Origin: Candidatus Harpocratesius repetitus
GTDB taxonomy: Archaea; Asgardarchaeota; Lokiarchaeia; Sigyniarchaeales; Promethearchaeaceae
Direction of reading: 5' to 3'
Length of the DNA: 32,000 nt
Assembly (NCBI GenBank): GCA_021498095.1
Contig: JAIZWK010000001.1
Span: 1,740,001 to 1,772,000 of the forward strand
The position numbers and the translations under genes are program-made. Below, piece after piece: positions 11,923-16,115 of this stretch. Each line of letters opens with the position of its first letter. Positions within the stretch are counted from its first letter, which is position 1. The notes below the pieces were generated by a model. That model had not been told where the DNA came from. It did no database searches and saw nothing but the letters and a program-made list of their open reading frames with translations.

Positions 11923-12615
11923 TCATTTATTAAGAGTTTTATACGAATAAACAATCCGTTGAATTAGTGTCCATGTGCATAGTGCACTAAAGATTAAAAA
12001 TAGAGCAGGAAACACCCAACGTATCTTGTGTTCACCCAAAATTTTTTCTTCTAGCGCAAACACTGCCCATTCGATAATATAAATAAATATTAAAATGAAA
12101 AATCTTTCAGCTCGTTCCATAAAACCTATTCCTTTCATGGAAATACCTTCAATTTCAGCTCTCGAACGGGTATATGAAATCATTAGCATTACTGTTAAAG
12201 TAAAAATACCAATTAAATAGTTAATTGTCGAATTCCAAGGCCAGATTATACCTCCAAACATTAACCCCATCATTGAAACTGCATCTGCAATCCTATCTAG
12301 TGTACTGTCTAAAAAAGCGCCGTACTTTGAAACCTTTCCAGATTTTCGTGCTACGGAACCATCCAATACGTCAATGTATCCTGATAAAAAGAATAGCCAA
12401 GGAGGAACACACGCCCACCACCACCAAATATTGGGAGTGATATAAGAATAATTATATAAAAATACAGAAGGAAAAGCAAATGCCACGCCTGCCAGAACTG
12501 AAAGAGCAAATCCGAATAAACTCAACTGGTTGGGGGTTATGTGATGCTTAATACACCATCGACTGGGGCCATCAACAAATTTTGGAAGTAGATAGCGATA
12601 ATTATTTAAAACCAT
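11923..12615 (-). CDS. CDP-alcohol phosphatidyltransferase (archaetidylinositol-phosphate synthase-like)
   Basis: ITPNQLS, the motif DVLDGSVARKSGKVSKYGAFLDSTLDRIAD, SYTRSRAE and GFMERAER, with multiple TM helices. Confidence 0.92.
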   Translation of the reverse strand: MVLNNYRYLLPKFVDGPSRWCIKHHITPNQLSLFGFALSVLAGVAFAFPSVFLYNYSYITPNIWWWWACVPPWLFFLSGYIDVLDGSVARKSGKVSKYGAFLDSTLDRIADAVSMMGLMFGGIIWPWNSTINYLIGIFTLTVMLMISYTRSRAEIEGISMKGIGFMERAERFFILIFIYIIEWAVFALEEKILGEHKIRWVFPALFLIFSALCTWTLIQRIVYSYKTLNK

Positions 12616-12757
12616 AATTTCGACCCTTTTTTATTTACAATCTAATTAAGAATACAAAATTAATAAGGTATCTTAAAGTAATTACAGAATTAATGGCAGA
12701 AAATAAGCTTTAGAAATAGAAAGAATCGAATAGATTAATAGTATAAAGAGTATTAAG

Positions 12758-13082
12758 GCATGATCTGTATCCGTTTTATAACCTTTGCGATCATTGTTAG
12801 GAAAAACCTAGTGCTCTCGCAACCTCTTCTCTAAAAACGGAAAATATGATTCATGCGGGCCAATATTTCTTGTTGCGGAGTAGGGTTGCTGACGATCTCA
12901 TCATTGCAAGCTCACGGCTGCCTCAGAGATGAGCCTAATTTCCGACTTAAAGAAATATTAACTCGGGGTTGTTGTCAGGATGCTTATGCTCGAAAATTTC
13001 ATTCGGAGACTTGATACAGTCAATTAACCGTCTATCTCGTCCTCGGTATCACATGACAAAAAAACGACCCGTCATTGTTCCC
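12758..13082 (-). ncRNA. Candidate multi-hairpin box H/ACA pseudouridylation guide RNA
   Basis: Non-coding and GC-richer than its flanks. Two hairpins (12944-12871 and 12841-12766) each have a lower stem, an internal pocket, an upper stem with tandem GA K-turn motif, and ACA (12873-12871; 12768-12766) 14-16 nt from the pocket top. TATA/BRE lie upstream. Confidence 0.7.
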
Positions 13083-13104
13083 TAAATTTATTAAAAGAAT
13101 AAAA

Positions 13105-13119
13105 TTATATATTCCTTCT
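13105..13119 (-). promoter_or_regulatory. Putative BRE-TATA promoter of the ncRNA
   Basis: Minus strand AGAAGGAA-TATATAA, with the TATA centre about 26 nt upstream of GGGAAC at 13082. Confidence 0.5.
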
Positions 13120-13135
13120 TATGATAATTTTTTAC

Positions 13136-13151
13136 TGATCAAAGTTGATCA
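13136..13151. repeat. TGATCA-N4-TGATCA box (copy 1)
   Basis: TGATCAAAGTTGATCA. It matches the reverse complement of 14047-14062 at 15 of 16 positions. Confidence 0.55.
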
Positions 13152-13311
13152 ACCACTATCATTGGTGGTTATTACAATAATAGATTGAGAGTTTATAAAG
13201 TTTTGGAAAAAAATTGAAGAGATCTCGCCTAAAATATGCCTAAAATCCACTGATTTGGCAATTTCAAAGAATTGGATTGTAAAAAAAAATTAAAATCTCG
13301 GAAATATTATG

Positions 13312-14684: not shown

Positions 14685-15641
14685 TTATTTATTACATCGT
14701 TTGGTTGGAAGTACAATATTTAGTTTGGTCACCAATTCTTTAAAGCGGTTCCTGACTGTAACTTCAGTTACTTGGGAAATACGCGCAATATCTCTCTGAG
14801 TTCGACGTTCTCTATAATATATCGATGCAACATATATAGCTGCGGCTGCCACACCTGTAGGACCTCTTCCTGATGTTAATCCTCTTTTCTCAGCAAGTGC
14901 TATTATTTGGTTGGCTTTTTTCGCTACTCTAGCGCTTAATTTCAATTCTGAAACAAACCGATTAACATAATCAGTAGCTTTAGTTGGATTGGAAGATAAA
15001 TTAAGTTTTGAAGCTACAAATCGATAACTTCTTCCAATTTCTTTTTTATCTACTCTTGCGTTTTCTGAAATTTCCTGCAATGTTCGAGGAATTTTGCACA
15101 TTCGACATGCTGCATAAAGAGATGCTGCTGCAACTCCCTCAATTGACCTTCCTCTTATTAAATGGTTACTAACAGCAGAACGGTATATTTTAGCTGCTGA
15201 TTCACGTAAATTTTTCGGTAATCCTAAAACTGAGCTCATACGATCTAATTCAGAAAGTGCAAACGTAAGATTTCTTTCGGTTGCATCAGAAACTCGAATA
15301 CGGGACTGCCAGCGACGCAATCGATAGATTTGACTTCGCAATCGAGAAGGAATTTCACGACCCGCATAATCACGATTTTTCCAATCAATGATGGTGCTTA
15401 AACCTTGATCGTGAATAGTTAAAGTCATTGGTGCACCAACCCTGGTACGTTTCTCTCTTTGATCTGAATCGAAAGCACGCCATTCTGCGCCTGGATCGAT
15501 TAATTTAGTACTCAAAACTAAGCCACAATGAGGACAGATTACTTCTCCTCGTTGAGTATCCATAATTGTATCATAACTATGGCATATTGGACAATAATCG
15601 TTTGTATCCATATCATCAAATTCTGTGCTTTTTTCCATCAA
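14685..15641 (-). CDS. tfb: Transcription initiation factor IIB (TFB)
   Basis: Zn ribbon CPIC...CPHCG, B-reader EWRAF, ERTRVGAP, two cyclin repeats (ERNL, RGRS, GRGPTG) and [13 protein letters not shown]. It reads on the MINUS strand (TTG at 15641); the track's '+' is wrong. Confidence 0.98.
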
Positions 15642-15674: not shown

Positions 15675-16115
15675 TTAAGATTTTTGGAGATCTGATTTGT
15701 AAGATTTTGAATTAAAACTTTTAGGTTTGGGATTTTTATTTTTGAACGCTTTAGGATTTCCTTTTGGATTTGCAGTTAACCTTAATTTCGGATTTTTTGG
15801 ATTTGATTTAGAATGAAACTTTGCTTTTTTAATTTTAGTTCTCCGTGACTTTTGAGCAGAAGAGAGTGTGAATAAAGCAGATCCTTTTTTAATATTGTAT
15901 TTTTTAAAAATTTCTGCATCTGAATGAAATGGTTTGACCGAAACAAATGGTTTATTCACAGGACCAAAAATATCTGTGATGATACCTATTTTTTGCTTTT
16001 CTGAAGAATATACTTTTTCTCCAATATCAGGTAGCTTTTTATCAAAAGCTCCTTCAATACTTCGCAAAATGATATGATTTGAATGAGCAATGCCGATAAT
16101 TTTCCCAATGTTCAC
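15675..16115 (-). CDS. gar1: Gar1/Naf1 family H/ACA RNP protein with a Lys-rich tail
   Basis: IGEKVY...KIGIITDIFGPVNKPFVSVKP, directly upstream of tfb as in the usual archaeal gar1-tfb arrangement. Minus strand (GTG at 16115); the track's '+' is wrong. Confidence 0.9.
   Translation of the reverse strand: MNIGKIIGIAHSNHIILRSIEGAFDKKLPDIGEKVYSSEKQKIGIITDIFGPVNKPFVSVKPFHSDAEIFKKYNIKKGSALFTLSSAQKSRRTKIKKAKFHSKSNPKNPKLRLTANPKGNPKAFKNKNPKPKSFNSKSYKSDLQKS

Follow-up and report, generated by a model that had tools for sequence, protein, structure and literature searches.

In this study, we found that a 32,000-nucleotide stretch of DNA (the window, G000:C1:1740001-1772000) from a closed archaeal genome of 4.36 Mb and 31% G+C (G000, the host) carries on its minus strand a hairpin, here called hairpin A, which is, as judged from its letters and their conservation, a bona fide conserved H/ACA-type hairpin, and which probably guides pseudouridine formation at U2554 (E. 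coli numbering) in the A-loop of the large subunit (LSU) rRNA. We give a probability of about 0.65 to this A-loop reading as a whole, in which hairpin A would serve as one of the guide units of an Asgard box H/ACA small RNA with several domains. The A-loop positions aminoacyl-tRNA in the peptidyl-transferase centre, and U2554 is a pseudouridine in yeast and human. The support for U2554 comes from an anchored complementarity score, from the agreement between the conserved pocket letters and the letters predicted to pair, and from a compensatory guide-target change in a distant family. A preliminary description of the window had already proposed U2554 or U2555 as the target. This interpretation is partly supported, as U2554 of helix 92 (H92) has the strongest support of any target, albeit with other base pairs and a three-letter shift of the register, while U2555 falls away since the host has A at position 2555, making U2554 the only possible target of the two.

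With reference to the genome, it was observed that the host rRNAs fit archaeal models and that a full-length actin (436 bits against Pfam Actin) is encoded, which is absent from all four archaeal control genomes and supports an assignment to the Asgard archaea. Cbf5 (442 bits), Nop10 (58 bits) and Gar1 (47 bits) are also encoded, each above its cut-off; the gar1 gene lies approximately 2.6 kb from the sRNA gene on the same strand and is followed by a gene of the TFIIB family (TFB). The comparison with Rfam gave no match at the gathering threshold across the whole window and none at E values up to 10 across 12500-13300. The H/ACA families of Rfam are sRNA-specific, and the missing match is therefore compatible with the box H/ACA class. 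In our literature search, H/ACA RNAs from Asgard archaea were not the subject of any paper.

Hairpin A occupies positions 12945-12871 of the minus strand and is made up of a 5-bp lower stem, a pocket, a 6-bp upper stem, a kink-turn (K-turn), an apical stem-loop and an ACA box, the whole being enclosed by an outer helix that thereby places the ACA box in an internal loop (Table 1). Homologs were collected by BLAST in eight relatives and then with two covariance models built in this analysis, which added more genomes of the host family (f1), a second family (f3) represented by five genera, and a distant third family (f18). Compensatory changes preserve the lower stem, the upper stem, the apical stem and the outer helix. 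In a 9-sequence alignment, 89.9% of the cells are paired against at most 57% with slid partners, and in a 23-sequence alignment, which was fitted to the covariance model, the corresponding values are 91.3% and 34-45%, with both-side changes in 22 of the 23 pairs; in the host itself, U12945.C12875 is a mismatch in the lower stem. Beneath the K-turn, five Watson-Crick pairs and the closing pair give an upper stem of 6 bp, which fits the rule from Pyrococcus that the K-turn lies 5-6 bp above the pocket (PMC2377435). The ANA box after the lower stem reads ACA or AUA in all 22 homologs of f1 and f3 and ACA in all three f18 hairpins. One relative (G001, L005) was seen to carry AUA in place of ACA in both hairpin A and hairpin B, the latter being a further hairpin of the same sRNA.

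Table 1. Parts of hairpin A and neighbouring genes, numbered from the first letter of the window; RNA partners are predicted.
Feature	Positions	Strand	Remarks
Outer helix, 5' strand	12951-12960	minus	pairs with 12861-12870; 7/7 modelled pairs change on both sides (23 sequences)
Lower stem P1, 5' strand UCGGA	12941-12945	minus	pairs with 12875-12879; 5/5 pairs change on both sides
5' pocket strand, variable unpaired part	12936-12940	minus	lineage-dependent sequence and length, 5 to 10 nt
5' guide element GGC	12933-12935	minus	predicted partner LSU G2677-C2679 (E. coli 2557-2559); invariant in 25/25 homologs
Upper stem H2, 5' strand	12926-12931	minus	C12931-G12893; A12930-C12926 with U12895-G12899; compensatory changes in 5/6 pairs; C-G closing pair invariant
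K-turn, non-bulged strand UGA	12923-12925	minus	GA faces conserved AAUGA; GA kept in nearly all homologs
Apical stem-loop above K-turn	12906-12922	minus	stem pairs covary
K-turn, bulged strand AAUGAU	12900-12905	minus	AUGA kept in nearly all homologs
Upper stem H2, 3' strand	12893-12899	minus	C12894 bulged
3' guide anchor CAGC	12888-12891	minus	predicted partner LSU G2670-G2673 (E. coli G2550, C2551, U2552, G2553), directly 5' of U2674 (E. coli U2554)
Spacer AA	12886-12887	minus	predicted bulge in guide-target helix; AA, A, UA or CA by genus
3' guide element CCC	12883-12885	minus	predicted partner GGG run of H92 5' strand (E. coli 2547-2549, or run just upstream); invariant in all homologs
Variable linker, guide to lower stem	12880-12882	minus	UAC, UUU, UAU, AGA and others
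Lower stem P1, 3' strand	12875-12879	minus	23-sequence covariation
ACA box	12871-12873	minus	1 nt past lower stem; AUA in some relatives
Outer helix, 3' strand	12861-12870	minus	23-sequence covariation
gar1	15675-16115	minus	just upstream of sRNA gene
TFIIB-family gene	14685-15641	minus	just upstream of sRNA gene
CDP-alcohol phosphatidyltransferase gene	11923-12615		downstream of sRNA gene

The letters on which the preliminary description was built are present on the minus strand (AAUUAGGC at 12940-12933, CAACCCUAC at 12888-12880 and ACA at 12873-12871), and its observation is confirmed in part: letters and hairpin are right, pocket limits and target letters are wrong. Its 3' pocket strand began at 12888, whereas the upper stem closes at C12931-G12893, so that this strand begins at 12892 and takes in an omitted UCAG (12892-12889), whose CAG does not vary among the lineages that possess it. 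The target predicted from the narrower pocket, GUAGGGUUG...GCCUAAUU, is absent from both the LSU and the small subunit (SSU) rRNA of the host. The Haloarcula-type H92 cited in support of it also differs from the H92 of the host, GGGGCUGUACGCCCAUU, which has A at E. coli position 2555 and whose A-loop flanks are without GGUUG and GCCUA, an absence that the preliminary description had itself named as refuting its proposal and that, taken literally, does refute it.

The host H92 reads GGGGCUG-UAC-GCCC-AUU, with LSU U2674 aligning with E. coli U2554, and the same is found in six LSUs of the host family. Across lineages, the pocket letters GGC, CAG[C/U] and CCC are invariant, and they are complementary to H92, CAG[C/U] matching G2550-G2553, CCC matching G2547-G2549 and GGC matching G2557-C2559, with U2554, A2555 and C2556 left unpaired. 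This amounts to 4 + 3 pairs 5' of U2554 and 3-4 pairs 3' of it, with UNN unpaired and a bulge in the guide that is non-canonical. The anchor is CAG[C/U] in 22/22 homologs of f1 and f3, the U variant keeping a G.U pair with G2550, and the genomes of f3 and f18 have one extra G on the 5' guide GGC, for which C2560 is the predicted partner. All ten letters predicted to pair are invariant or change only from C to U (G.U kept). The letters predicted to be unpaired mostly vary (12936-12940, 12886-12887, 12880-12882, and 12892 between the upper stem and CAGC, which is U, C or A), with the exception of 12932, which is U or C, mostly U.

For the anchored score, only the invariant letters were used, the first guide letter had to pair beside the target U, and one interruption was allowed. 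Among all LSU and SSU U positions passing the 5'-guide pairing filter, U2674 of H92 scored 26 and the next position 15. Shuffled letters reached 26 in 14 of 500 trials (p ~0.03), under a one-bulge scoring model that was devised once the H92 register had been seen. Over the whole 4.36-Mb genome and both strands, the score of 26 was obtained at six sites, two of which are the two LSU copies.

In the mechanism that we propose, L7Ae would bind the K-turn of hairpin A and Cbf5-Nop10-Gar1 would bind its lower stem and ACA box, the sRNA being presumably expressed, and the resulting particle would open helix 92 of the LSU rRNA. The CAGC of the 3' pocket strand would pair with G2550-C2551-U2552-G2553 and, beyond the bulged 2-nt spacer, CCC would pair with the preceding G run, while the GGC of the 5' pocket strand would pair with G2557-C2558-C2559. 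U2554 (LSU 2674), A2555 and C2556 would stay unpaired at the junction, where Cbf5 would receive U2554 and isomerise it to pseudouridine.

In archaeal box H/ACA guides, the target U is expected 14-16 nt upstream of ANA. The distance from target to ACA, described earlier as 15-16 nt, is 18 nt raw in the shifted register, 17 nt with a 1-nt spacer, and 16 nt if the spacer of 1-2 nt is bulged out, and it is 15 nt in f18. Functional pairings in Pyrococcus lie 14-15 nt from the ANA box, and a 17-nt pairing failed (PMC2377435). With 18 nt against the working 14-15 nt, the U2554 model depends on a looped-out spacer, which is its weakest point. We know of no precedent for such a spacer bulge. The length of the spacer varies and all other distances are constant, and the anchor C lies 16 nt plus the spacer length from the box in 22/22 homologs of f1 and f3; in hairpin B of the same sRNA, a hand count from the sequence also gave 16 nt. 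The 5' guide of f1 makes only three pairs and leaves three target letters (UNN) unpaired, an arrangement that is tolerated in Pyrococcus, though unusual (PMC2377435). The minimum-energy left-arm duplex for the host pairs ACCCU with an upstream AGGGU and loops out three target G, so that the distal register is tentative and the anchor beside U2554 is unaffected. When the pocket and H92 were folded as two strands, intramolecular hairpins won and the three-way junction was not recovered.

The prediction of a bulge was recorded before the f3 genera g13, g15, g16 and g17 were retrieved. In the f3 genera, the spacer varies in both sequence and length (AA, A, UA, CA) and CAG[C/U], CCC and (G)GGC are held, as expected of a spacer predicted to be an unpaired bulge. 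For nine genomes of f1 and f3, both the LSU and the guide were read, and in all of them H92 reads GGGGCUG-U[A/U]C-GCCC. The host A-loop (L001, G000:C1:802841-805945, LSU 2675) was seen to read UGUAC, and E. coli position 2555, a U in E. coli itself, is thus occupied by A; A at this position, which is predicted to be unpaired, is common to f1, g9 and g16, and U is found in genus g13 and in family f18.

In f18, H92 is GGGGUUG-UUC-GCCC (G138, G157) and the hairpin carries CAACCC, giving six contiguous pairs beside U2554, four on the opposite side (GGGC with GCCC) and an ACA distance of 15 nt. The change of C2551 to U in the f18 target is matched by a G-to-A change in the guide, a compensatory guide-target change that counts as one independent event (f18 against f1 plus f3), and the f18 hairpins reach only 25-29 bits with the covariance model. 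Comparatively, the guides of four of the five lineages tested are anchored beside U2554 in the pairing with their own type of H92, and form a more stable duplex with it than with the swapped type (e.g. -12.0 vs -9.7 and -9.1 vs -6.8 kcal/mol). The exception is the host guide, which gives -13.2 kcal/mol with the f18-type H92, in the register first drawn, against -11.6 kcal/mol with its own H92, and this better fit is read as a relic of an older pairing.

The alternative that survives best, although we hold it to be unlikely, is that hairpin A is a functional H/ACA unit whose real target is another RNA, or which is an orphan, and that its match with H92 is a coincidence arising from G+C-rich triplets. 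The p value of only about 0.03 under a model chosen post hoc would agree with this, as would the non-canonical 18 nt to ACA, and the prediction of archaeal H/ACA targets is error-prone (PMC11077068; PMC2377435). It can be observed, on the other hand, that no rival site comes close in LSU, SSU, the 36 tRNA genes, 5S, SRP RNA or RNase P RNA, and that a coincidence leaves both the conservation pattern and the compensatory change of f18 unexplained. Canonical bipartite searches (uninterrupted pairing, at most one mismatch, UN or UNN gap) returned no convincing conserved site in the LSU and SSU of six relatives and nothing in the 36 tRNA genes, 5S, SRP RNA and RNase P RNA, and the best matches of the genome-wide canonical search all fall inside long ORFs, sense or antisense, which also speaks against another target. 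That a canonical pairing without a bulge yields no convincing target counts equally against the U2554 reading.

Several candidate sites were considered and rejected. LSU 1862 (H63) offers 5+6 pairs in the host and is not kept in relatives, LSU 2812 (H97) has a 9-bp left arm with no U at the junction and lies in a variable region, and neither SSU 244-255 nor SSU 796 is conserved. The 15-mer GGGUUGCUGAGAGCC, found at C1:2054786 and C1:2061785, is exactly complementary to GGCUC plus UCAGCAACCC of hairpin A, but it is antisense to a duplicated ORF and without an unpaired U, and was taken as chance. It lies on the plus strand of a 300-bp duplicated segment (95% identical) within two minus-strand ORFs (L071 2697-2996 and 9696-9995). 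A descriptor scan for other H/ACA hairpins, intended to calibrate the geometry, returned 263 matches, and the reversed or complemented controls gave 105; hairpin B alone could be recognised among the matches and the share of matches with an rRNA target was about that of the controls, making the scan uninformative.

It is improbable, in our assessment, that the register of the preliminary description works as it was drawn, with CAACCCUAC (12888-12880) on the 5' strand of H92, C12888 facing G2553 and the A.C at C2551 tolerated. This register selects the same U2554 at a canonical 15 nt to ACA, and it is free of mismatches in f18 (H92 GGGGUUG, guide CAACCC). On the host H92, the claim of at least 5+5 bp becomes 8/9 pairs on the left, interrupted by the A.C mismatch, and no more than GCC/GGC on the right. 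The earlier strands reach -12.8 kcal/mol there, and shuffled strands found an equal or better rRNA site in 73/100 trials, which makes the pairing as first drawn no better than chance. The UAC (12882-12880) from which the long left arm derives is specific to the host, relatives having UUU, UAU or AGA; the AA required for U2552 and C2551 becomes A, UA or CA in the f3 genera, and the invariant CAG (12891-12889) would be left without a role.

Some eukaryotic H/ACA RNAs act in processing. Hairpin A could likewise be a chaperone that binds H92 while the LSU is assembled and aids folding or processing without isomerising U2554, a reading that we regard as more improbable still. A bulged guide and a long ACA distance could misplace U2554 for catalysis, and yeast snR10 has a processing role besides guiding (PMC8307265); against this, all the parts required for catalysis are present and conserved, and the geometry of f18 is canonical at 15 nt. 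We attach hardly any weight to a smaller pocket, closed by GCU (12934-12932) with AGC (12890-12888) and guiding LSU U1448 (E. coli about 1314) through AAGGGUU with AACCCUU, since its conserved LSU site, 14 nt to ACA and 6-7 left-arm pairs in f1 are set against a right arm of 2-4 mostly wobble pairs, its loss in g9 or G008 (alignments judged by eye), an upper stem of about 10 bp where the rule allows 5-6 bp (PMC2377435), and f3 spacer changes that break AACCC.

As a predicted guide for U2554, hairpin A can be compared with known systems. It resembles yeast snR10, the guide of 25S Psi2923, in the predicted nucleotide, E. coli U2554 beside Um2552 and Gm2553, and in the enzyme family, Cbf5 with Nop10 and Gar1 (PMC8307265). 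That Psi2923, with its guide snR10, adjoins Um2921 and Gm2922, as stated in the preliminary description, is confirmed (PMC8307265). The likeness concerns target position and enzyme family, with no sequence homology claimed, and unlike snR10, hairpin A has a K-turn for L7Ae, belongs to a multi-domain sRNA and has a 3' guide interrupted by a spacer. To our knowledge, and by a rough position conversion, no mapped pseudouridine of Pyrococcus abyssi corresponds to E. coli 2554. In Haloferax volcanii, sR-h45 reportedly acts on the H69 loop and on the position equivalent to U2586, outside the A-loop. This RNA is a double-hairpin H/ACA guide (PMC7075261). In Sulfolobus islandicus, none of the pseudouridines that have been mapped lies in the A-loop (PMC11077068).

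The Pyrococcus sRNAs Pab35, Pab40 and Pab105 are similar in carrying several hairpin-pocket-K-turn-ANA units per RNA, with an upper stem of 5-6 bp, a dominating 3' guide and a tolerated unpaired UNN trinucleotide (PMC2377435). Their lower stems of at least 7 bp and ANA distance of 14-15 nt (PMC2377435) differ from the 5 bp and 18 nt (16 without the spacer) of hairpin A, and here, unlike in the Pyrococcus sRNAs, an extra helix closes an internal loop around each ACA box. Such a covarying helix surrounds each H/ACA unit, that of hairpin B consisting of GCAUGA (12855-12850) and UCAUGC (12763-12758), and as it begins right after ACA, the box lies in an internal loop instead of at a free 3' end.

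If Asgard archaea guide U2554, a eukaryote-type rRNA modification of the catalytic centre could trace to the archaeal side of eukaryogenesis, and an interrupted 3' guide together with helix-enclosed ACA boxes would broaden the rules for finding H/ACA RNAs and their targets. A longer history can be imagined, in which eukaryotes inherited the RNA-guided pseudouridylation of U2554 from Asgard ancestors, Psi2923 of yeast and the corresponding human site continuing an archaeal modification, and in which the guide tracked its target: with the change of H92 from GGGGUUG to GGGGCUG, AGC would have entered CAACCC as a new anchor and the relic spacer would have bulged and decayed. We regard this scenario as speculative and, taken in full, decidedly doubtful.

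The remaining parts of the sRNA were also inspected. Hairpin B (12758-12841, minus strand) combines a lower stem of 7 bp and an upper stem of 6 bp with a K-turn and AUACA; in genera g5 and g6, AUUCAGG stands in place of the box and ANA is missing. Among rRNA positions, hairpin B best matches LSU U2047 in CUAUAAC-UC-UCUU on the 3' side of H69, equivalent to yeast Psi2264, with 6+4 pairs in the host and only 4+4 in relatives. The 5' domain of the same transcript (12961-13082, minus strand) closes with a K-turn, where AAUGA near 13075 with CGGG faces CCCC-GA (12968-12963); its GGG/CCC pairs covary, and C'-like GAAUGA and CUGA letters occur inside. Much as in Pyrococcus Pab21, the 5' domain may represent a C/D-like or K-turn module joined to the H/ACA hairpins. 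The likeness to Pab21, an H/ACA sRNA with a C/D-box motif (PMC2377435), lies in the C-box-like AAUGA and the GA K-turn elements placed before the H/ACA hairpins, the putative C/D likeness being judged here from the letters of the 5' domain.

Regarding the rRNA genes, the LSU of one f18 genome (G157, L100 1465-1494) carries an insertion of about 30 nt after AUUAAAAAG past H92, just before GGGAACGUGAGCUGGG, which is absent from the other LSUs read. The host shows an unusual arrangement of its rRNA genes (G000:C1:2300729-2305614, 802841-805945, 724577-726072 and 1399892-1400758), as one locus contains the LSU followed by the SSU, while the second LSU and the second SSU are solitary and far apart. 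Its 5S genes are present as three tandem copies approximately 375 bp apart.
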